Assembly: GCA_017620915.1 (NCBI GenBank)
Contig: JAFZSK010000051.1
Coordinates: 24,215 to 88,214, forward strand
Source: Clostridia bacterium
Lineage (GTDB): Bacteria; Bacillota; Clostridia; UBA1212; UBA1255
DNA: 64,000 nucleotides
Direction of reading: 5' to 3'
Shown here one piece after another: positions 16,095 through 56,870 of this stretch (within the stretch, counting starts at the first letter, position 1; the number at the start of each line of letters is the position of its first letter). Under the pieces are notes generated by a model, which saw only the letters and a list, made by a program, of their open reading frames with translations, did no database searches and was not told where the DNA came from. Both the position numbers and the translations under genes were made by a program.

Positions 16095-16183
16095 GGAGAA
16101 GTACCCAAGTAGGTCGAAGGGGACGGTTTGCTAAACCGTTAGGTCGGGTTACCGGCGCCGGGGTTCGAATCCCCGCTTCTCCG
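16095..16183 (+). tRNA. tRNA-Ser (anticodon GCT)
   Basis: Cloverleaf read by hand: acceptor GGAGAAG/CTTCTCC, anticodon loop TTGCTAA, long variable arm, T-loop GGTTCGAATCC, discriminator G. No encoded CCA. Confidence 0.85.
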
Positions 16184-25166: not shown

Positions 25167-25249
<83 letters not shown>

Positions 25250-46052: not shown

Positions 46053-47111
46053 ATGGCAATGGGCATATTGACGAAGGCGGCAACACTGCTGGCGGAAAAA
46101 GGCTGGGTGGAATTTCCGAACCTGTTCAAAAAACATGGCCTCAAGCTGAATATCGATGACGTGGTGTTCAGGATCGGCAGCCTCGAAGTGCGCTGGTACG
46201 GCCTGCTGATCAGCGGTGTGGTGGTGCTGTGCATCTTTCTGGGACTGAAGTCGTGCAAGAAGTACGGCATTGAACCTAACGACCTGCTGGACTACCTGAT
46301 CTTTTCGCTGCCCGCGGCGGTGATCGGACTCCGGGTGTATTACGTTGCCTTCAATTTCGAGGAGTACCGGGACAATCTATGGGATGTTTTCGCGTTCTGG
46401 AAAGGCGGGCTGGCAATTTACGGCGGCATTATCGGTTCGGCGATCGCGGTGCTGATCGTGGCCAAGGTCAAAAAGCAGAAAGTGCTCAAGATCCTCGACT
46501 TCCTGATCGGATATATCGCGCTGGGCCAGGCGGTCGGACGCTGGGGCAATTTCTTCAACCAGGAAGCGTTCGGCGGCCCCACCAAAATGCCCTGGGGCAT
46601 GACCGGCGATAAGATCGAGATCTTCGTCCGTTCGCAGGGCTGGCAGACGGGCACGCTGGTGCATCCCACGTTCCTGTACGAGTCGCTGTGGTGTTTTGTG
46701 GTTTTCGCGGTGATAATGCTGTACCGCCGCAGTAAATTTAAGAAGGTTGACGGCGAGTGCCTGGCGCTGTACATGATCCTTTACGGCGTCGAGCGCATGA
46801 TCGTAGAGGGGCTCCGGACGGACAGCCTGTACATCGGCAAGACCGGGATCCGCGTTTCGCAGCTGCTTTCCGCGATACTGGTGATCGTGGGCATCGCGCT
46901 GTTCATCGACTTTAAAGTGCGCTGGAAGAAGGCGGTGTACGAGGGGACCGCGGAAGGTGTTGACGCCGGCGAGAGCGGGTTTGCTGCCGCGCTGGAGGAA
47001 ATGAAGACCGGCGAGGCTGATGCGGAAGACGCGGAGGCAGTCACCGACGCCGCGGACGATGCCGCGGAGGATGTCGCCGACGCCGTAGAAAAAGCCGAGA
47101 CCGCCGGTTGA
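46053..47111 (+). CDS. lgt: Prolipoprotein diacylglyceryl transferase
   Basis: Lgt signature GRWGNFFNQEAFG and HPTFLYESLW. Acidic C-terminal extension. Confidence 0.85.
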   Translation: MAMGILTKAATLLAEKGWVEFPNLFKKHGLKLNIDDVVFRIGSLEVRWYGLLISGVVVLCIFLGLKSCKKYGIEPNDLLDYLIFSLPAAVIGLRVYYVAFNFEEYRDNLWDVFAFWKGGLAIYGGIIGSAIAVLIVAKVKKQKVLKILDFLIGYIALGQAVGRWGNFFNQEAFGGPTKMPWGMTGDKIEIFVRSQGWQTGTLVHPTFLYESLWCFVVFAVIMLYRRSKFKKVDGECLALYMILYGVERMIVEGLRTDSLYIGKTGIRVSQLLSAILVIVGIALFIDFKVRWKKAVYEGTAEGVDAGESGFAAALEEMKTGEADAEDAEAVTDAADDAAEDVADAVEKAETAG

Positions 47112-47118
47112 CCGCGCC

Positions 47119-48303
47119 ATGGCCCGATTCAGAAAAAGCAATTCACAGATCGTCAATAAAGACGAGCACCGTCTGTTCCGTGAGATATCCGTTACCAAAC
47201 CGGTGGATTATCTCATGGAATTTGACTATTTTCTGCTGATCATCGCGCTGGCGATCACGGTCATCGGGCTGATCTACCTGGGCAGCGCCATGAGCAATAT
47301 GTACGCGGACGGCGGCGCGTCGGCAATGAAGTCGCAGATCGTCGGCCTCGTCATCGGCGTGGTCCTGGCGCTGGTGCTGGCGTTTTTTGACTACGACCTG
47401 CTGAAAAAGATCACCTGGCCGTTTTTCGCGTTCAACGTGCTGCTGATGCTCAGCGTTTTCACACCGCTCGGCATCGAAGATTACGGCAGCCGGTCCTGGA
47501 TTGGCATCGGCAGTTTCACGTATCAGCCCTCCGAACTTATGAAGCTGGCAATGGTCCTGGTTATCGCCATCGAACTCGAAAAAGCGCAGGAGGAAGGCTT
47601 CAATTTCCGCCGCGTGCTGATCATTTCCGCCGCGTTTCTGGTGCCCCTCGGCCTGATCATCCTGCAGAAGGATATGGGTCAGGCGATGGTGCTGACCTTC
47701 GCGTTTTTAATGGTGTTGTTCGTGGGGCGGGCGAAGTGGTGGTATGTGTTGTCCGTGCTCGCGCTGGGCGGGGCGGCAATACCGTTCCTCTGGAAATTCT
47801 TCCTCAACGGCACGCGGCGGGCAAGGCTGTTTGCGTTTATTGACCCCGAAAAGTATCCGGATTACTCGCTCCAGCTGATCCGTTCGGAGACGGCGATCGG
47901 CTCGGGCGGCCTCACCGGCCAGGGCGTCGGGCAGGGGGCAATGAACAGCGGCAAAAAGATCCTGGTCAAAATGTCCGACTCGATCTTCGCCGTGATCGGC
48001 GAGGAGGGCGGCTTTATTATCGCCGCGCTGGTGGTAATATTGTTCGCGATCCTGCTGCTCCGGATGTGCTACATTTCGGCGCGGGCGCGGGACATGTTCG
48101 GCAAGTGTGTTGCCGCCGGCATCCTGGCGATGTTCCTGTTCAACATTTTTGAAAATATCGGTATGAATCTGGGCATAATGCCCATCACCGGCCTGCCGCT
48201 GCCGTTCATCAGCAAAGGCGGCAGCGCCATGATCACCAACTATATCTGTATCGGTCTGCTTTTGTCCGTGTCGCTGCGGCGGAAACGGGAGTTCTTCGAA
48301 TAA
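47119..48303 (+). CDS. FtsW/RodA/SpoVE (SEDS) family peptidoglycan polymerase
   Basis: ~10 TM helices. SEDS motifs GSRSWIGIGSFTYQPSE and PFISKGGSAMITN. Confidence 0.8.
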   Translation: MARFRKSNSQIVNKDEHRLFREISVTKPVDYLMEFDYFLLIIALAITVIGLIYLGSAMSNMYADGGASAMKSQIVGLVIGVVLALVLAFFDYDLLKKITWPFFAFNVLLMLSVFTPLGIEDYGSRSWIGIGSFTYQPSELMKLAMVLVIAIELEKAQEEGFNFRRVLIISAAFLVPLGLIILQKDMGQAMVLTFAFLMVLFVGRAKWWYVLSVLALGGAAIPFLWKFFLNGTRRARLFAFIDPEKYPDYSLQLIRSETAIGSGGLTGQGVGQGAMNSGKKILVKMSDSIFAVIGEEGGFIIAALVVILFAILLLRMCYISARARDMFGKCVAAGILAMFLFNIFENIGMNLGIMPITGLPLPFISKGGSAMITNYICIGLLLSVSLRRKREFFE

Positions 48304-50132: not shown

Positions 50133-50318
50133 AATAGAATTAGGCTTTTATCTTGTGGGAATTAGGCTTTTTCCTTTGTAGAATCAGAGAATGAGAGAAT
50201 TGAGGTGTCGCCTTCGGAGACGATATCACACGCAAGGAAGTCGCTTCACCGCACCGCTCGTGAGATCCGCGGCCAGCCGGCCGCTCCGTAATTCTCTAAT
50301 TCCCCAATTGCAATTTCC
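50133..50318. repeat. Composite element 3: GAATTAGG-type iterons, GC-rich core (50207-50288) with inverted GAGATCCGCGG, then an imperfectly inverted AT-rich arm
   Basis: The left arm units are aatagaattagg / gggaattaggc / gagaattgagg. Core reverse complement ggccgcggatctcacgagcggtgcggtgaagcg matches the core of element 2 at 21 of 23 nt. The right arm is taattctctaattccccaattgcaatttcc. Confidence 0.85.
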
Positions 50319-50337
50319 CGCCGTTTTTGTGTATAAT
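50308..50337 (+). promoter_or_regulatory. Promoter of the tlpA operon
   Basis: TTGCAA-18 nt-TATAAT (TG adjacent) directly after element 3. SD GGAGG then a TTG start at 50361. Confidence 0.45.
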
Positions 50338-50360: not shown

Positions 50361-50939
50361 TTGAAACGAACGAAACCGGTGAAAGTGCTGGCGATTTTAT
50401 GTGCGGCGATGATGCTGCTCTTCGCGGCGTCGTGCGACAAACTGAAGCAGTTATACAACGGGATCAAAGATGAGATCGACGATCTGGCAAATCAGATCCA
50501 GGAAGAAGACGGCAGCGATGCCGGCAAGCGCGGCACGTACGATTTCGTTTCGCATGATATTGACGGAAACGAAGTAAAGTTGGCCGATTTTGCCTCCGCA
50601 AAAGTCATAATGCTCAATTACTGGGAGCCTTGGTGCCCGCCCTGCATCCGCGAGCTGCCCGAGCTGGAAAAGCTCTATGAGGCGTACAAGGACAAAGGTC
50701 TGGTCATCGTCGGCGTGTTCGAATCCACGGATATGGATGCCGACGCGCGCCGGCTGATCAGCCAGAACGGGCTCACGTACCCGATCGTACGCTACGAAGA
50801 TGCGCTCAAGAATTACAGCGCCTCCGCGGTGCCCACGACGCTGTTCGTGGACGCGAGCGGCAATCTGCTCGCCAAAGAAGTAGTCGGCGCCAACGACTAC
50901 GACGGCTGGAAAGCGCTCGTTGACAGCCTGCTGGGCTGA
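50361..50939 (+). CDS. TlpA/ResA-like thiol-disulfide oxidoreductase lipoprotein
   Basis: Lipobox FAASC. Thioredoxin active site WCPPC. Confidence 0.8.
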   Translation: MKRTKPVKVLAILCAAMMLLFAASCDKLKQLYNGIKDEIDDLANQIQEEDGSDAGKRGTYDFVSHDIDGNEVKLADFASAKVIMLNYWEPWCPPCIRELPELEKLYEAYKDKGLVIVGVFESTDMDADARRLISQNGLTYPIVRYEDALKNYSASAVPTTLFVDASGNLLAKEVVGANDYDGWKALVDSLLG

Positions 50940-50947
50940 GGCCTGCC

Positions 50948-51133
50948 ATGAAGACGCGGGCGGACCGGAAGCCGGAAGACGGCAATAAAAAGCGGATCGT
51001 GCGGATCGTTGTCCCCGCGCTGCTGATCGCGGCGGCGCTGGCGTTGATCGCCGTCGGCATCGCGTCAAAGCAGCTCACCGCCGTCTGGAGCAAGGCGGCC
51101 AAACTGTGTCTGGAGTGTGTGGGAATTGGCTAG
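50948..51133 (+). CDS. Small single-TM ORF, possibly the frameshifted N-terminus of the downstream 4Fe-4S protein
   Basis: 61 aa. KRIVRIVVPALLIAAALALIAVGI resembles the N-terminal helix of NapH/YccM-like proteins. Overlaps the downstream GTG-start ORF by 17 nt in another frame. Confidence 0.3.
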   Translation: MKTRADRKPEDGNKKRIVRIVVPALLIAAALALIAVGIASKQLTAVWSKAAKLCLECVGIG

Positions 51134-52544
51134 GGGAAAGTCGCGCAGAACTGAACTCGGGTCTGTCCCCCGTACAAAACACCGCCCTGCAGCGTTTTTT
51201 CAGCGTTACCGCCTGGTGTTTCAGGGCCTCGCCGCGCTCATTCAGAACGCAAATTTCAAAGGCTTCTTCACCGGCAAGCCCTTTACCGGCGCCTCCAAAG
51301 CCGTGTGCGTGCCCGGACTCAACTGCTACTCCTGCCCCGGCGCAGTCGGCGCGTGCCCGATCGGTTCGCTGCAGAGCTTCCTTAATTCCAAGAAATTCCG
51401 GTTTCCGTACTATGTGCTGGGGCTACTGATCTTCTTCGGCGCGCTGCTGGGCCGCGCGGTGTGCGGTTTCCTGTGCCCCTTCGGCCTGCTGCAGGATCTC
51501 ATCCATAAGATCCCGTTTTTCAAGAAGATCCGCACGTTCAAAGGCGACCGGCTGCTGCGCAAACTGAAATACGCGGTGCTGATCGTGACGGTGATCGTAT
51601 TGCCGCTCATTTTCAAACTGGTGCCGGTATTCTGCAAATACATCTGTCCGTCGGGGACAATATCCGGCCTGCTCGTGGGCATCGCGGACTCGTCCATTGG
51701 CCGGCTGTTCGGTGGTCAATTCATGTGGAAACTCTGCATCCTCGGCATCATCGTGCTGCTCTCGCTCTTGATCTACCGGCCGTTCTGCAAATACCTGTGC
51801 CCGCTGGGAGCGTTTTATGCGCCCTTCAACAAGATCTCCGCCGTACGGCTGGACGTGGACAATACCAAATGCGTCTCCTGCGGCGCCTGCGCGAGGGCGT
51901 GCGGCATGGGCGTTGACCCCACAATAAGCCCGGACGACACCGAGTGCATCCGCTGCGGCGAGTGTGCGCTCCATTGCCCCCGGTCCGCGATCCGCATCGG
52001 TTTCGGCGCGCCGCTAAAGCGCACGATCGCGGACAATGCCGAAGGAAAAGAACCGCTCGGCAGCAAAGTGATCATACTGGGTCCGTCCGGCAGCGGCAAG
52101 AGCACGTTCGCCCGCCGGCTGCACGCGCTGACCGGCCTTGCTCTATACCATCTGGACAACATCTGGTGGAGACCCGACCGGACGCACATATCCCGCGAGG
52201 AGTTTGACGCGGAACTGGCCAAACTGCTGGAGGGGGAGAAGTGGATCATCGACGGCGACTACAGCCGGACGTACGAGCCCCGGATCGCCGCCTGCGACAC
52301 CGTGTTTTTACTGGATTACAGCGAGGAGCAGTGCCTGGACGGCATTAAGGCGCGCGTGGGCAAAACGCGGAGCGATATACCCTGGACCGAGCAGGAGCTT
52401 GATCCCGAGCTGGTGGAGGACATCCGCAATTACGGCTCGGTCAAACGCCCGGTCCTTTATTCGCTGCTCCGAAAGTATTCGGACAAACGGATCATCGTCT
52501 TCAAAACGCGGGCAGAGTCTGAGGATTGGATCTCAAAAGTGTAA
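51117..52544 (+). CDS. NapH/YccM-like membrane 4Fe-4S binding protein fused to a P-loop NTPase (adenylate-kinase/FlaR-like) domain
   Basis: VCVPGLNCYSCPGAVGACPIG, CGFLCPFGLLQD and KYLCPLGAFY, plus CVSCGACARAC ... CIRCGECALHCP ferredoxin clusters. C-terminus: Walker A GPSGSGKST and a DGDYSRT ... kinase-like fold. GTG start. Confidence 0.6.
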   Translation: MWELARGKSRRTELGSVPRTKHRPAAFFQRYRLVFQGLAALIQNANFKGFFTGKPFTGASKAVCVPGLNCYSCPGAVGACPIGSLQSFLNSKKFRFPYYVLGLLIFFGALLGRAVCGFLCPFGLLQDLIHKIPFFKKIRTFKGDRLLRKLKYAVLIVTVIVLPLIFKLVPVFCKYICPSGTISGLLVGIADSSIGRLFGGQFMWKLCILGIIVLLSLLIYRPFCKYLCPLGAFYAPFNKISAVRLDVDNTKCVSCGACARACGMGVDPTISPDDTECIRCGECALHCPRSAIRIGFGAPLKRTIADNAEGKEPLGSKVIILGPSGSGKSTFARRLHALTGLALYHLDNIWWRPDRTHISREEFDAELAKLLEGEKWIIDGDYSRTYEPRIAACDTVFLLDYSEEQCLDGIKARVGKTRSDIPWTEQELDPELVEDIRNYGSVKRPVLYSLLRKYSDKRIIVFKTRAESEDWISKV

Positions 52545-52563: not shown

Positions 52564-52595
52564 TGCTTGACATTTGCAAGCAAAAGATGTATAAT
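52564..52595 (+). promoter_or_regulatory. relBE promoter with overlapping operator palindrome
   Basis: TTGACA(52567-72)-17 nt-TATAAT(52590-95). The inverted repeat TTGCTTG-n6-CAAGCAA (52564-52583) straddles the -35. Confidence 0.55.
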
Positions 52596-52626: not shown

Positions 52627-52932
52627 ATGGCAAATACTGCAGCTGTTTATGCACGTATCGATCCCAAATTGAAAAGCGATGCGGAGGAGATCCTATCAGA
52701 GCTCGGCTTAACGCCGTCATCTGTCGTGCAGATGCTTTACAGTCAAATCAGGCTTACCAGAAGTGTGCCTTTTGAAATCAAACTGCCTCCGCGGACGCCG
52801 GTTTCTGTTGCAGATTTAACGAACGAACAATTATCCGCAGAATTGCAAAAGGGCGTGGATTCGATAAAAGCGGGGAAAGTCCATTCGGCAGAAGAAGTTG
52901 ACGCTATTTTGCGGAAGGAGTTTGGGATCTGA
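52627..52932 (+). CDS. RelB/DinJ family antitoxin
   Basis: AAVYARIDPKLKSDAEEILSELGLTPSSVVQMLYSQI is a DinJ-type ribbon-helix-helix. Its stop overlaps the toxin ATG (ATGA). The long track ORF 52138..52932 is an out-of-frame upstream extension. Confidence 0.7.
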   Translation: MANTAAVYARIDPKLKSDAEEILSELGLTPSSVVQMLYSQIRLTRSVPFEIKLPPRTPVSVADLTNEQLSAELQKGVDSIKAGKVHSAEEVDAILRKEFGI

Positions 52933-53249
52933 TGGAGAGTTATCAAGTCCTTTATTCTGATGAAGCACTCGATGATCTGCGAGAGATCTACTCTTATATT
53001 GCTTTTGTGTTGAAAGAACCGCTCGTAGCGACAAGGCTTATTCAGCGTATACGAAAAGAAATCCAAACGCTTGGCCTTTTTCCGGATAAGTATCACGTTG
53101 TGACTATTGAGACAATGCGTTTGCTGGGCATGCGGCAAAAAACGGTCGGTAATTTTGTGATTTTTTATCTGACCGATTACAATAACCGGGCTGTCAACAT
53201 TGTCCGCGTACTCTACGGAAGACGCAATTTAAACGAGATAATTAAATAG
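52932..53249 (+). CDS. RelE/ParE family type II toxin
   Basis: 105 aa. DDLREIYSYI ... NFVIFY ... VNIVRVLYGRRNL is the RelE/ParE fold. Confidence 0.75.
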   Translation: MESYQVLYSDEALDDLREIYSYIAFVLKEPLVATRLIQRIRKEIQTLGLFPDKYHVVTIETMRLLGMRQKTVGNFVIFYLTDYNNRAVNIVRVLYGRRNLNEIIK

Positions 53250-53353
53250 TCCGGTTTGCATATTTAAACTGAAAATGATACAATATTGGACATCCCGGAC
53301 CGCCCGGAAACGGCCGGCGGACGGGTGTATATGACCGGGGAGGGACCCTTGAT

Positions 53354-55357
53354 ATGGCTGAAAAAAACAAGACTTATTACATCACGACACCGATCTATTA
53401 TCCCAGCGGGAACATGCATATAGGACATTCGTATACGACCGTCGCCGCCGACGCGGAAGCCAGGTACAGACGCCTTAAAGGGTACGACGTGATGTTCCTC
53501 ACCGGTACGGACGAACACGGGCAGAAGATACAGCGCAAAGCCGCGGAAAAAGGCGTCACGCCGAAGGAGTACGTGGACGAGATCGTTGCCAATACCAAAG
53601 AGCTCTGGAAGCTGATGAACGTCACCAACGACCGGTTCATCCGCACCACCGACGATTTTCATGTTGCCGCCGTACAGAAGATATTTAAACGCCTGTACGA
53701 TCAGGGAGACATATATAAGAGCGAGTACGAGGGCTGGTACTGCACGCCCTGCGAGTCCTTCTGGACTGAGACGCAGCTGGTGGACGGCAAGTGCCCCGAC
53801 TGCGGCCGCCCCGTGGAGCGCACCCGCGAAGAAAGCTATTTCTTCCGCCTTTCCAAATATCAGCAGCGCATAATCGACTACATCGAGAGCCATCCCGACT
53901 TCATACAGCCCGTATCCCGCAAGAACGAGATGCTGAACAACTTCCTGCGGCCCGGACTGGAAGACCTGTGCGTGTCCAGAACGTCCTTCGACTGGGGCAT
54001 CCCGGTCACCTTCGATCAGAAGCATGTGGTGTACGTGTGGGTGGACGCGCTCTCCAACTACATCACGGCGCTGGGATACGCGAGCGACGACGACAGCGCG
54101 TTCAAAAAGTACTGGCCGGCGCAGGTGCATCTGGTGGGCAAAGAGATCGTACGCTTCCATACCATCATCTGGCCCGCGCTGCTGATGGCGCTGGATCTGC
54201 CGCTTCCGGAGCAGGTGTACGGGCACGGCTGGCTGCTTATTGACGGCGGCAAGATGTCCAAGTCCAAGGGCAACGTCGTTGACCCCCGCATCCTCTGCGC
54301 CAAATACGGCTGCGACGCGATCCGCTATTTCCTGCTGCGCGAAGTGCCCTTCGGCGCGGACGGCGTGTTCACGAACGAAGCGCTGATCGGCCGCATCAAC
54401 GCGGACCTGGCCAACGACCTGGGCAACCTGGTATCGCGCTCGGTGTCGATGCAGCTCAAATATTTCGGCGGCGTGCAGCCGGCGGACAAGACCTTTGCGG
54501 CTCCGGATGAAGAGATCCGCGGTCTTTTTGCGGAGATCTACGCCAACGTGCAGACGCAGATGGACGCGCTCCAGTTCCCCTCGGCGCTCACCGAGATCTG
54601 GCGCGGAGTGTCGCGGCTGAATAAGTTCATTGACGAAACGGCGCCGTGGGTACTGGCCAAGACCGCCGATACTTCCGACGCGGACCGGGCGCGGCTCGCG
54701 GGCGTGATGTACACGCTGCTGGAAGGCATCCGAATCATATCCATACTGATCGAACCGTTCATGCCCGAGACGCCGGCGAAGATCCGGGCGCAGCTGGGCA
54801 TTGCCGGCCGGCACGAGCTGACCGCGTGGGAAAGCGCGGCGCAGTGGGGCGTGTACCCCGACGGTACCGCCGTGCAGAAGGGTGAGGCACTGTTCCCGCG
54901 CATTGACGCCAAAAAGGAACTGGAAGAGCTGGAGCGGATCCATCAGGAAGCCAAAGCGGCGGCAACGCAGACCGGCGCCCCCGCGAAAGAGGCCGGCGGC
55001 AGCGCGGCTCCGGCGGCGGGTGAGGACAACGCCAACCTGATCACCATTGACGACTTCGCCAAAGTGCAGATGAAGGTGGCGGAAGTTATTGCCGCCGAAA
55101 AAGTGCCGGATTCGGACAAACTTCTGAAACTCAGGCTGAACGTAGGCGCCGAAACGCGCCAGGTGGTATCCGGCATTGCGAAACAGTACAGCCCGGAAGA
55201 AATGGTGGGCAAGAAAGTGATCCTGATCACCAACCTGCAGCCCGCGGTGCTGCGCGGCGTGGAGTCGCAGGGCATGATCCTGGCCGCGACCAAGGGCAAA
55301 AAGCTGGTGCTCGTCACCGTGGACGGCGACATTCCGGCGGGCGCGGCGATCAGCTGA
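53354..55357 (+). CDS. metG: Methionine--tRNA ligase with C-terminal tRNA-binding domain
   Basis: HIGH motif YPSGNMHIGH, KMSKS motif, zinc knuckles CTPCESF ... CPDCG, and a C-terminal EMAP-like domain. Confidence 0.9.
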   Translation: MAEKNKTYYITTPIYYPSGNMHIGHSYTTVAADAEARYRRLKGYDVMFLTGTDEHGQKIQRKAAEKGVTPKEYVDEIVANTKELWKLMNVTNDRFIRTTDDFHVAAVQKIFKRLYDQGDIYKSEYEGWYCTPCESFWTETQLVDGKCPDCGRPVERTREESYFFRLSKYQQRIIDYIESHPDFIQPVSRKNEMLNNFLRPGLEDLCVSRTSFDWGIPVTFDQKHVVYVWVDALSNYITALGYASDDDSAFKKYWPAQVHLVGKEIVRFHTIIWPALLMALDLPLPEQVYGHGWLLIDGGKMSKSKGNVVDPRILCAKYGCDAIRYFLLREVPFGADGVFTNEALIGRINADLANDLGNLVSRSVSMQLKYFGGVQPADKTFAAPDEEIRGLFAEIYANVQTQMDALQFPSALTEIWRGVSRLNKFIDETAPWVLAKTADTSDADRARLAGVMYTLLEGIRIISILIEPFMPETPAKIRAQLGIAGRHELTAWESAAQWGVYPDGTAVQKGEALFPRIDAKKELEELERIHQEAKAAATQTGAPAKEAGGSAAPAAGEDNANLITIDDFAKVQMKVAEVIAAEKVPDSDKLLKLRLNVGAETRQVVSGIAKQYSPEEMVGKKVILITNLQPAVLRGVESQGMILAATKGKKLVLVTVDGDIPAGAAIS

Positions 55358-55382
55358 GCGCCGATCATTCCGGTTCCGAAAC

Positions 55383-56870
55383 ATGATCAGTAAAAACATA
55401 GATCGCTCCGCAGCGGGCACGATATCGCGAGGCAGAGGTCTGTCCCCGGTCAAAACGGCGGCAGTACTGGCTGCCTTGCTCGCGTTGTGCGGCGGTATTG
55501 CGGGCTGTAATACGACGCCGGCGGGGCCGCGGTTTACGAGCGGACCGCTGCCAACGGCAGATACTGATACAACGGAATTGCCCGCAACTGTGCCTGCCAC
55601 GGCCGCGCCGACAGAGGCCCCGACGGATACGCCGGTCACCGAAACCCCAACAGCCACGACCGCGCCCGCGGTCAATGGACTGTTCATTGGTTCTGACAAC
55701 CCTGCCGCGCTGGCGCTCATCGCAGGGCTGGCGGAGCCGGAAAGAGTGATAATGACGCCGGAGCAGATCGCCGCGGACAACGCGCGAATGCTCCGGGAAT
55801 GCGATAAATTGACCGGCCTCGCCGCAATGCCGGATACATTGTCGCGGGAAGAACTGCAGGCGCGGCTGAACGCCGCGAAACTGCCCGCGCTGCCCAAATA
55901 CGACAAGACCGGCCGCGCCATCACGCAGGAGGAATTCGACGCGATCTGTGAATTGCGGGATATTGACGCCGTACCGGGGCAAAACCCGGTGCGATACGGC
56001 ATCGTCGTGAAGCGCGCGGACCTGCGGCGGCTGCCTTCCGAACTGAGTTTTTACAATGCGCCGGACAACCCCCTCGACCGCATCCAGGAGACCGAACTGT
56101 ACGTGGGTATGCCGCTCCGGGTGCTGTGGCGCACCGCGGACAACGCATACTATTTCGTGGCCTCGTACTATTATTCCGGCTGGACGCGGGCGGACAACGT
56201 AGCGCTCTGCGCCACGGAAGCGGAATGGCAGGAATTCGCGGCGCCGGAGCGTTTCGCGGTGATCACCGATGCGCTGCTCGGGCCGGACAACGCAGGCGGC
56301 GAATATCTGGACATGGGCGTTAAGCTGCCGCTGCGCACCGCTGCGGAAAGCGCTGACGACGGCCTGACCGTGTGGCAGCCGGTGCGGAACGGCGCCGGAA
56401 TGCTGGAAAAGCGGGAATTGACGCTGCCGCGGGCCTCCGCGCATGAAGGATATCTGACGTTCACTTACGCCAACTTCATCGCACAGGCCTTCAAGTATGA
56501 AGGTACAATGTACGGCTGGGGCGGGCTGGACAACGGAGTTGACTGCTCCTCCTTCGTGGCGAGCGTGCTCCGCGCATTCGGGTTCTACGTGCCCCGGGAT
56601 ACGTCGGATCAGCGCACCGCGGTGGGCGATTCGCGGGATGCGGCCGTTCTGACCGACGCGGAAAAGCTGGCGTTGTGCGCCGAACTGTGGCAGCGCGGCC
56701 CGGTGGTCGTTTATTCGAAAATACATACGCTGTTCTACTTAGGCGAGCAGGACGGCCGGGCGGTGTACATCCACGCGCCGGGCGCCGGCAAAAAAGTCGG
56801 GATCGCGTACGACCGTACACTGGAAGATATAATATACATTTGCGGTATTTACGGGGAGAATCTATCATGA
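55383..56870 (+). CDS. NlpC/P60 (C40) family peptidoglycan peptidase lipoprotein
   Basis: Lipobox IAGC. PT linker. The C-terminal papain-like catalytic motif is GVDCSSFVASVLRAFGFYVPRDTSDQ ... H. Confidence 0.7.
   Translation: MISKNIDRSAAGTISRGRGLSPVKTAAVLAALLALCGGIAGCNTTPAGPRFTSGPLPTADTDTTELPATVPATAAPTEAPTDTPVTETPTATTAPAVNGLFIGSDNPAALALIAGLAEPERVIMTPEQIAADNARMLRECDKLTGLAAMPDTLSREELQARLNAAKLPALPKYDKTGRAITQEEFDAICELRDIDAVPGQNPVRYGIVVKRADLRRLPSELSFYNAPDNPLDRIQETELYVGMPLRVLWRTADNAYYFVASYYYSGWTRADNVALCATEAEWQEFAAPERFAVITDALLGPDNAGGEYLDMGVKLPLRTAAESADDGLTVWQPVRNGAGMLEKRELTLPRASAHEGYLTFTYANFIAQAFKYEGTMYGWGGLDNGVDCSSFVASVLRAFGFYVPRDTSDQRTAVGDSRDAAVLTDAEKLALCAELWQRGPVVVYSKIHTLFYLGEQDGRAVYIHAPGAGKKVGIAYDRTLEDIIYICGIYGENLS

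Follow-up and report, generated by a model that had tools for sequence, protein, structure and literature searches.

A three-gene operon of Clostridia encoding a TlpA-like lipoprotein, a CXXC mini-protein and a NapH-like iron-sulfur protein: a putative redox relay with a P-loop fusion in one clade

Are two overlapping open reading frames (ORFs) in different frames two genes, or the pieces of a single gene broken by a frameshift? This question is raised by positions 50361 to 52544 of a 64,000-nucleotide (nt) stretch of forward-strand DNA from a Clostridia bacterium (assembly GCA_017620915.1, contig JAFZSK010000051.1, positions 24,215 to 88,214), hereafter called the window. On the + strand, the region carries a gene for a TlpA-like thioredoxin-fold lipoprotein, an ORF of 61 amino acids (aa) and a 475-aa ORF in which a NapH-like membrane iron-sulfur (Fe-S) protein is joined to a P-loop domain. 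The three ORFs, their motifs and their coordinates, as described by the initial annotation, were recovered when the sequence was read again and agree with the Pfam and NCBIfam matches. We consider, with a probability of about 0.62, that the region is a single operon, running from a promoter candidate at approximately 50308 to the stop codon at 52544, and that it contains three separate genes whose products would form a redox relay. The same gene arrangement recurs in more than 80 other genomes, and its features go far beyond what chance would give. The operon family is widespread in gut and rumen Clostridia, the P-loop fusion being the sole unusual trait of the window copy.

The 61-aa ORF (50948..51133, + strand) begins 8 nt after the tlpA stop codon. 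Its product consists of a lysine/arginine (K/R)-rich N-terminus, one transmembrane (TM) helix and an amphipathic tail that ends in KAAKLCLECVGIG immediately before the stop codon. It matched the NCBIfam family NF040920 (CD1871A family CXXC motif-containing protein) with 44.0 bits over a cutoff of 32 (E-value 1.4e-11), and positions 2-38 of the 38 in the profile aligned to residues 25-61, the match finishing at the stop codon itself. For comparison, 80 relatives of the large protein with identities of 41-86% were taken from genomes that represent different species of the Lachnospiraceae, Oscillospiraceae, Christensenellales and further groups, and the addition of four metagenome contigs gave 84 loci; some of the counts given below use 80, 82 or 83 of them. 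A homologue of the small gene ending in KAxx[ILV]C[LM]EC[VI]G[ILV]G and a stop codon was found immediately upstream of the NapH-like gene at 82 of the 84 loci. Its frame relative to the latter was mostly different and sometimes the same with an intervening stop codon, and at none of the 84 loci were the two genes fused. The tails of the family are strongly conserved: none of the 80 compared departs from G(-25), C(-8), E(-6), C(-5), G(-3) or G(-1), and 76-77 of them keep the near-invariant V(-16), K(-13) and A(-12). Proteins of this CD1871A type have a median length of 49 aa, an N-terminal flank with a net charge of +2.8, one hydrophobic helix and a neutral (approximately 0) tail of 23 residues. 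When the window copy was compared with its closest relative, locus L001, which served for all the ratios of non-synonymous to synonymous substitution rates (dN/dS) given here, the small gene yielded 0.25 in its own frame and approximately 1.45 (1.4-1.5) in the other two. In addition, RefSeq annotates the small and the NapH-like genes separately in Peptoclostridium acidaminophilum (locus L087), and the NCBI record of the same organism as the window, a metagenome-assembled genome named "Clostridia bacterium", lists the 61-aa protein on its own as MBO5076799.1. The 61-aa ORF is an independent conserved gene and not a missing N-terminal helix of the NapH-like protein.

The 475-aa ORF opens with GTG at 51117, ends at 52544 and overlaps the small gene by 17 nt in a different frame. 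This ORF and its overlap stand as initially annotated; the GTG, however, is not favoured as the start. At 69 of 83 loci a start codon in the NapH frame lies 8 nt inside the end of the small gene. In the window this is TTG 51126, which gives a protein of 472 aa and an overlap of 8 nt (51126-51133), and an identical 8-nt overlap is shown by RefSeq in P. acidaminophilum. The overlap has the layout A-TTG-GNT-(AA/AG/GA), in which the Ile-Gly-stop of the small gene is read as the Met-x-x of the next one, and this accounts for the N-termini MD[NKD], MA and MV found in databases. A putative coupling element (51112..51128, + strand), consisting of a ribosome-binding site (GGAG, 51112-51115) supplied by the Leu/Met-Glu codons of the small gene, a 10-nt spacer and TTG at 51126-51128, is placed within the last codons of that gene. 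GTG 51117 was rejected as the start: it is merely 1 nt away from GGAG, against 10 nt for the TTG, and the overlap is 8 nt family-wide. Codon choice in the small gene was also informative. At 76 of 82 loci its invariant Glu is written GAG, a codon that accounts for 50% of Glu in the neighbouring NapH-like genes taken as control, and its penultimate Ile is ATT in 68 of 74 (control 29%), with binomial p-values for this bias of at most 1e-16 that are overstated since the loci are related; TGGAG is present in 73 of 82. Because synonymous codons preserve both GGAG and TTG, translation of the NapH-like gene most likely begins at TTG 51126. This arrangement points to translational coupling of the small and the NapH-like genes, and a coupled overlap suggests that their products probably form a complex, perhaps a stoichiometric one. 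As the TTG start and the 8-nt overlap are family-wide, the public annotation MBO5076800.1, which starts the Fe-S protein internally at 51213 (MVFQG..., 443 aa), is probably too short, with the loss of about 29 residues including the K/R-rich N-terminus.

These data bear directly on the possibility that the 61-aa and the 475-aa ORFs are one gene whose TM helix has been split off by an authentic or programmed frameshift, or by a sequencing error, near 51100-51133, as the initial annotation had proposed. The proposal had its grounds in the overlap of two ORFs in different frames, in the TM helix of the small one and in a T6 run just downstream. However, the small ORF belongs to a family of its own and ends precisely at the conserved C-terminus of that family, it is separate at nearly all the loci including those where both genes share a frame with a stop codon between them, its dN/dS is that of a coding gene in its own frame, and the two genes are annotated as two. 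A single uninterrupted ORF spanning both parts was found neither at any of the 84 loci nor in any of the 150 best matches among 1.84 billion cluster representatives (the set to which all the counts out of 150 refer), and none of these 150 carries the CxECxGxG motif within a NapH-like protein. Orthologues of the large protein begin at the equivalent TTG, whose surroundings are preserved by the codon bias, 8-30 residues before the RLxxQGxAALxQNA block and with no additional helix. An alignment of orthologues thus showed the absence of an upstream TM extension, which speaks against a frameshift, although the small ORF is far from unconserved, being kept as its own gene. As for the T6 run (51195..51200, + strand), it is ordinary coding sequence for the Phe-Phe of a conserved AFFQRYR, and the frame is unchanged in the window and in loci L001, L002 and L005; since it encodes conserved residues, it is not a slippage site. 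The split N-terminus is therefore refuted as an explanation, and we regard a frameshift here as extremely improbable.

The large protein begins with a NapH-like membrane Fe-S module (51126..52004, + strand; residues are numbered from TTG 51126, and numbers counted from the GTG are three higher). It has four predicted TM helices (approximately residues 20-41, 93-108, 141-162 and 189-215), a CX5CX2CX6CP loop between helices 1 and 2 (C61, C67, C70 and C77), three CX3CP motifs (C113/117, C170/174 and C221/225) and two CX2CX2CX3C(P) motifs for 4Fe-4S clusters (C249-259 and C274-284). Of 82 family members, at least 90% keep each of eighteen cysteines, namely the eight of the clusters, the three CX3CP pairs and the four of the loop. 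The module matched Fer4_5 and Fer4 of Pfam, the former (PF12801) in three stretches and with 78.3 bits against a gathering threshold of 22. The scores stayed below the cutoffs of the NapH/MauN models (58.6 of 213 bits for TIGR02163 and 52.4 of 234 for PRK09477), and neither NapG, NapA, NapB nor MauM was found as a neighbour in the window or at 83 related loci. Judged by its sequence, the large protein is NapH-like and not NapH. When AlphaFold2 (AF2) modelled the whole fusion from a mixed alignment, the membrane part had a predicted local distance difference test score (pLDDT) of 40-70; the N-terminal domain alone, modelled from a more diverse alignment, attained a pLDDT of 78 and a predicted template modelling score (pTM) of 0.75. 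Loop 2 is strongly K/R-rich and would be cytoplasmic; with a cytoplasmic C-terminus, the four-Cys loop and the middle CX3CP motif would then face the outside.

The first gene of the operon (50361..50939, + strand; TTG start) encodes a TlpA/ResA-like thioredoxin-fold protein of 192 aa with a WCPPC motif, and its dN/dS was 0.11. The product exceeded the Pfam cutoffs of AhpC-TSA (PF00578, 64 bits), Redoxin (PF08534, 59.5 bits) and Thioredoxin_8, with E-values of 1e-17 for the first two, and both the thioredoxin fold and the WCxxC site are thus present. It scored under the equivalog cutoffs of ResA (86.6 of 170 bits), StoA (59.5 of 210) and TlpA (50.7 of 230), and on these scores it is a member of the general family and of no specific ResA, StoA or rhizobial TlpA equivalog. 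Its N-terminus, MKRTKPVKVLAILCAAMMLLFAAS-C (...LFAAS-C), matches the lipobox pattern as read from the sequence, and the protein is a predicted lipoprotein. An identical product is deposited at NCBI as MBO5076798.1 with the name "TlpA family protein disulfide reductase". A TlpA-like gene adjoins the NapH-like gene in 80 of 83 loci, mostly upstream and, in a subset, directly downstream. A sigma-70-like promoter candidate (TTGCAA-18-TATAAT, 50308..50337, + strand) is located 24 nt upstream of the tlpA start and agrees with the consensus at 10 of 12 positions, a consensus match alone. Given this candidate and the separate promoter of the gene pair that follows the operon (see below), the three genes look like one transcription unit. 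No riboswitch or leader RNA was detected upstream of tlpA at the Rfam gathering thresholds.

The association between the Fe-S protein and the thioredoxin-fold protein goes beyond adjacency. In about 38 of the 150 best representatives, the C-terminus of a NapH-like protein continues into one or two Redoxin/TlpA-like domains. Fusions of this kind, 527-752 aa long and assigned to Clostridia or "Candidatus Coproplasma", make up at least 116 clusters when grouped at 90% identity. The five that we examined have a K/R-rich stretch and an extra TM helix between the ferredoxin and the Redoxin domains, which would put the Fe-S and the thioredoxin domains on opposite sides of the membrane. At three fusion loci the abutting gene encodes a protein of 271-290 aa (L088, 2184-2999; L089, 2127-2999; L091, 2151-3008) that had no Pfam match, has five hydrophobic segments and scores above the NF040920 cutoff in its last 37 residues. 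Loops 2 and 4 of these proteins are K/R-rich, and the CXXC tail is accordingly predicted outside; the charge distribution of the single-helix small protein predicts the same, with the N-terminus in and the C-terminus out. Partner TlpA-like proteins mostly carry WC[GSPT]PC, a motif of the reducing type, and 63 of 83 have a lipobox-like motif. Finally, a representative of 789 aa (P0364) has a GltD-like NAD(P)H flavoprotein (Fer4_20 and Pyr_redox_2) N-terminal to the NapH-like module, which hints at a possible cytoplasmic source of electrons. Other observations made on these relatives were a serine dehydratase alpha gene upstream at L088, L089 and L091, a Redoxin-containing protein of 941-978 aa on the opposite strand at L088 and L089, and four NapH-like proteins of 462-496 aa (P0244, P0245, P0251 and P0254) in which a C-terminal extension of about 180 aa with 3-5 hydrophobic helices, giving no Pfam match, replaces the TlpA domain.

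The TlpA fusions, which are the strongest functional evidence, and the predicted outward CXXC tail lend support to the earlier suggestion of extracytoplasmic thiol-disulfide electron delivery, and the operon probably serves to move reducing equivalents through the membrane. The route that we envisage would start at a low-potential cytoplasmic donor, either a ferredoxin or an NAD(P)H-dependent flavoprotein of the GltD-like kind. Electrons would enter the two 4Fe-4S clusters in the cytoplasmic ferredoxin domain of the NapH-like protein, which is predicted to have four TM helices and an outward four-Cys loop, and would cross the membrane by its Cys and CX3CP sites. The NapH-like protein would then reduce the CXXC of the mini-protein, whose N-terminus is predicted to be cytoplasmic and whose single TM helix would leave the CxEC-x-G-x-G tail outside. 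This tail would in turn reduce the TlpA-like predicted lipoprotein, which would be anchored at the outer face of the membrane with its WCPPC site, and the latter would act on extracytoplasmic proteins by reducing their disulfides or oxidised cysteines. Such a module would serve the same end as CcdA/DsbD though unrelated to them. We hold this chain, an Fe-S-based export of reducing power from the NapH-like protein to the CXXC subunit and TlpA independently of CcdA/DsbD, as a tentative proposal whose chances lie a little below even.

Extracytoplasmic thioredoxin-fold reductases of Firmicutes are thought to depend on thiol relays of the CcdA/DsbD type. The likeness of the operon to CcdA/DsbD with ResA, StoA, TlpA or CcmG consists of a membrane-anchored WCxxC acceptor of thioredoxin fold and of the proposed outward transfer of electrons. 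The resemblance is functional only, as none of the three operon proteins matched the DsbD/CcdA domain (PF02683), and the membrane component here is instead an Fe-S protein with CX3CP motifs and a small CXXC subunit. One-electron Fe-S chemistry would therefore apply, and not a cascade made up purely of thiol-disulfide exchanges with thioredoxin at its head; analogues of such chemistry are ferredoxin:thioredoxin reductase and heterodisulfide reductase. With NapH, NosR and PceC the large protein shares a Fer4_5/CX3CP membrane domain followed by a cytoplasmic domain with two 4Fe-4S clusters. It differs from them in adding the CX5CX2CX6CP loop, in having three CX3CP motifs and in its score far under the NapH cutoff; the system also lacks the flavin mononucleotide (FMN)-binding domain, NapG, NapA and NosZ, and has a thioredoxin-fold protein and a CXXC mini-protein as partners. 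Méheust et al. (2021, PMC8238504) portray NapH-like proteins as modular conduits that take electrons through the membrane, in most cases in partnership with flavinylated domains. A preprint reports a "novel three-protein operon" of gut Clostridia composed of a 4Fe-4S ferredoxin, a TlpA-family disulfide reductase and a CxxC protein (bioRxiv 10.1101/2025.11.06.686285, PMC12637426), and links its abundance, as a metagenomic association, to immune-related adverse events in melanoma immunotherapy. The window operon has the same three families, usually found in the same order and in the same bacterial class. The preprint contains no analysis of mechanism, topology or start site and does not mention the C-terminal P-loop domain of the window copy. 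The window locus is a P-loop-carrying variant of a recognised operon, and its interest is in the operon family and not in this copy. If the proposed relay is true, gut and rumen Clostridia would possess, in a widespread Fe-S alternative, a separate mechanism for bringing electrons to the cell surface; the evidence includes 80 loci from different species and more than 100 clusters of fusions between NapH-like and TlpA-like proteins. To an operon recently flagged, without a mechanism, as a microbiome marker of immunotherapy side effects, the present analysis adds a predicted topology, the conserved cysteines, the gene fusions linking its components and the position of a coupled TTG start.

Several points weigh against the relay and have to be set beside the evidence for it. 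The AF2 model is moderate as a whole (pLDDT 78) and poor in the four-Cys loop, and structure searches found no solved structure matching the membrane part. Helix 1 is weakly hydrophobic and loop 1 has about four K/R residues, so the outward placement of the four-Cys loop follows from parity with the cytoplasmic C-terminus and not from direct prediction. The flow of electrons from the cytoplasm to the outside is argued solely from redox potentials and WCGPC-type motifs. The only paper found on the operon (PMC12637426) is correlative, and a literature search for "CD1871A" returned no papers. Searches for COG0348 with "thiol-disulfide" and for NapH with CX3CP and "thiol" returned none either.

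Other functions can be proposed for the same genes, all of them much less probable in our view than the outward export of reducing power. The module could work in the oxidising direction, in the manner of DsbA/DsbB, with TlpA making disulfides and electrons passing inward to the Fe-S clusters and an acceptor. Its architecture is symmetrical in this respect, and anaerobes may lack the quinones that DsbB needs. However, the partner thioredoxins are mostly of the WCGPC type that is typical of reductants, the families that it matches best, ResA, StoA and TlpA, are reductases, and the relative fused to an NAD(P)H-dependent flavoprotein suggests an input of electrons; moreover, flow from low-potential Fe-S clusters to a disulfide is downhill and the reverse is not. 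We consider the oxidising direction improbable. A similarly low place is given to the handling of metals or metalloids, in which the NapH-like protein would be, for example, a CcoG-like cupric reductase and the CXXC peptide a metallochaperone, TlpA keeping metal-binding cysteines reduced. CcoG/FixG, a membrane protein with two 4Fe-4S clusters, reportedly acts as a cupric reductase, CXXC motifs at protein termini are frequent binding sites for copper or zinc, and the TlpA of Bradyrhizobium serves the insertion of copper into Sco and CoxB. Nevertheless, the conserved neighbours of the three genes include no metal transporter, Sco or oxidase gene, the Pfam scan gave no FixG_C domain, and the recurrent partner is a thioredoxin-fold protein that may even be fused to the NapH-like one.

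The idea that the small gene encodes the precursor of a ribosomally synthesised and post-translationally modified peptide (RiPP), to be processed by the Fe-S protein, was considered as well, given that it is short, ends in an invariant Cys-rich C-terminus and lies next to such a protein. It was rejected: the Pfam scan revealed no radical S-adenosylmethionine (SAM) domain and there is no CX3CX2C motif, the peptide has a TM helix and is conserved along its whole tail, some lineages have it as the last part of the polytopic membrane proteins of 271-290 aa, and no peptidase or exporter is conserved nearby. A RiPP precursor is therefore as hard to believe in as the frameshift.

The relay having been weighed, there remains the fusion of the window copy. 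After the ferredoxin domain comes a linker (52005..52061, + strand) of 20 residues that has 61% nt identity to L001 with an in-frame 3-nt indel, a dN/dS of approximately 1.3 and a pLDDT below 50, and that evolves freely. It leads to an adenylate-kinase-like P-loop domain (52062..52544, + strand; residues 316-474 of the 475-aa GTG ORF), similar to FlaR or "topology modulation protein", with the Walker A motif GPSGSGKST at 52080-52106. Its best NCBIfam match was PRK08118 (DNA topology modulation protein) with 114.3 bits, under the cutoff of 215. It was modelled by AF2 with a pLDDT above 90, and Foldseek related it to hCINAP/AK6, shikimate kinase, Fap7 and adenylate kinases (E-values 4e-5 to 1e-3). 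The likeness to FlaR/PRK08118 covers the Walker A motif, a WIIDG(D/N)Y block and an adenylate-kinase-like fold in the C-terminal 160 residues; unlike these standalone proteins, the window domain is fused to a membrane Fe-S protein and scores below the family cutoff. The dN/dS was 0.125 for the P-loop domain and 0.20 for the Fe-S part, with values of 1.1-2.2 in the other frames, and the P-loop domain is kept by selection. Independent assemblies contain the identical 472-aa protein as well as four or more further alleles of 442-473 aa with 91-95% identity, all of them in frame, one being named "adenylate kinase family enzyme/..." by JGI. The next relatives, with 86-88% and 80% identity, stop after the ferredoxin domain. 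The fusion, which had been noted at the outset as unusual, is real and is limited to one species-level clade of at least 91% identity. A search for other fusions between NapH-like proteins and AAA-type domains, which the initial annotation had recommended, gave no protein with both a NapH-like and a P-loop part among the best 150 representatives. An apparent second long fusion in L035, matching up to query residue 437, was discarded as an alignment artefact; the protein in question is a 348-aa NapH-like protein with insertions.

Standalone homologues of the P-loop domain are plentiful (163-253 aa, 59-79% identity), and the closest of them, P0121 with 79% identity and a PRK08118 score of 122.7 bits that is also below the cutoff, lies in an unrelated context unlinked to a NapH-like gene. 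No P-loop gene was found in the flanks of any other locus, of which up to about 6 kb per side was searched, and an origin of the fusion from genes that were already adjacent was rejected on this ground and on the context of P0121. In this one clade, a standalone adenylate-kinase-like gene has become joined, without a change of frame, to the end of the NapH-like gene that encodes the cytoplasmic C-terminus, and the result reads as a recent gene fusion at the cytoplasmic end, tolerated or possibly useful. As the P-loop family is joined elsewhere to partners as different as GNAT acetyltransferases, an IMP-cyclohydrolase-like domain, an M20 peptidase and DUF3795, the fusion may have no mechanistic meaning. 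A functionally integrated domain, in which ATP binding or phosphotransfer gates or regulates the electron transfer of the NapH-like protein, would be in accordance with alleles that remain in frame at a dS of approximately 0.35, with the purifying selection on both domains and with the lack of an evident internal start codon with a ribosome-binding site. However, the nearest sisters and all the other relatives do without the domain, its family is joined to unrelated partners, its closest standalone homologue is not linked to a NapH-like gene and no other locus has a P-loop gene within the searched flanks of up to about 6 kb per side. We therefore think integration unlikely, and slightly more so that the adenylate-kinase-like domain makes the conduit responsive to nucleotides. 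The fusion is probably incidental to the redox function and, in its significance, a curiosity of one lineage.

The surroundings of the operon were also inspected. In the clustering of the neighbourhoods of 83 loci, nothing but the TlpA-like gene was conserved apart from a two-component system in 21 of them, made up of an OmpR-type response regulator and a histidine kinase beside the three genes (for example L069, 3857-5005, and L070, 1-495). These neighbours suggest envelope-stress regulation in some lineages; no two-component system is beside the window copy. At L035 (3643-5940) there are two upstream TlpA-like paralogues of 388 and 278 aa, the second with a Pro/Thr-rich linker, and the small protein is a variant that ends in CRECVGISGK and not in CxECxGxG and a stop codon. 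The namesake CD1871 locus of C. difficile 630 is listed within a conjugative transposon (PMC12772354), and some copies of the module may thus be mobile; the remaining literature matches for "CD1871" concerned this transposon location or a different gene. A search of plasmids gave one good match alone, on a Peptoclostridium megaplasmid.

Directly downstream of the operon in the window are genes for a RelB antitoxin (52627-52932) and a ParE toxin (52932-53249), preceded by a perfect sigma-70 promoter (TTGACA-17-TATAAT, 12 of 12 positions, 52567-52595), and a RelB gene is present at the same position in L001. They are followed by a 912-aa ORF on the - strand (53264-56002) that is antisense to metG (53354-55357) and to the neighbouring gene. 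Its low-complexity composition, rich in Ala, Arg and Gly, marks it almost certainly as a shadow ORF in G+C-rich genomic DNA rather than a gene. The Rfam matches in the window were two tRNA genes only (16095-16183 and 25167-25239). Upstream of the operon, at a distance of 2-4 kb, lgt, which encodes prolipoprotein diacylglyceryl transferase, and a gene of the FtsW/RodA/SpoVE family occupy positions 46053-48303.

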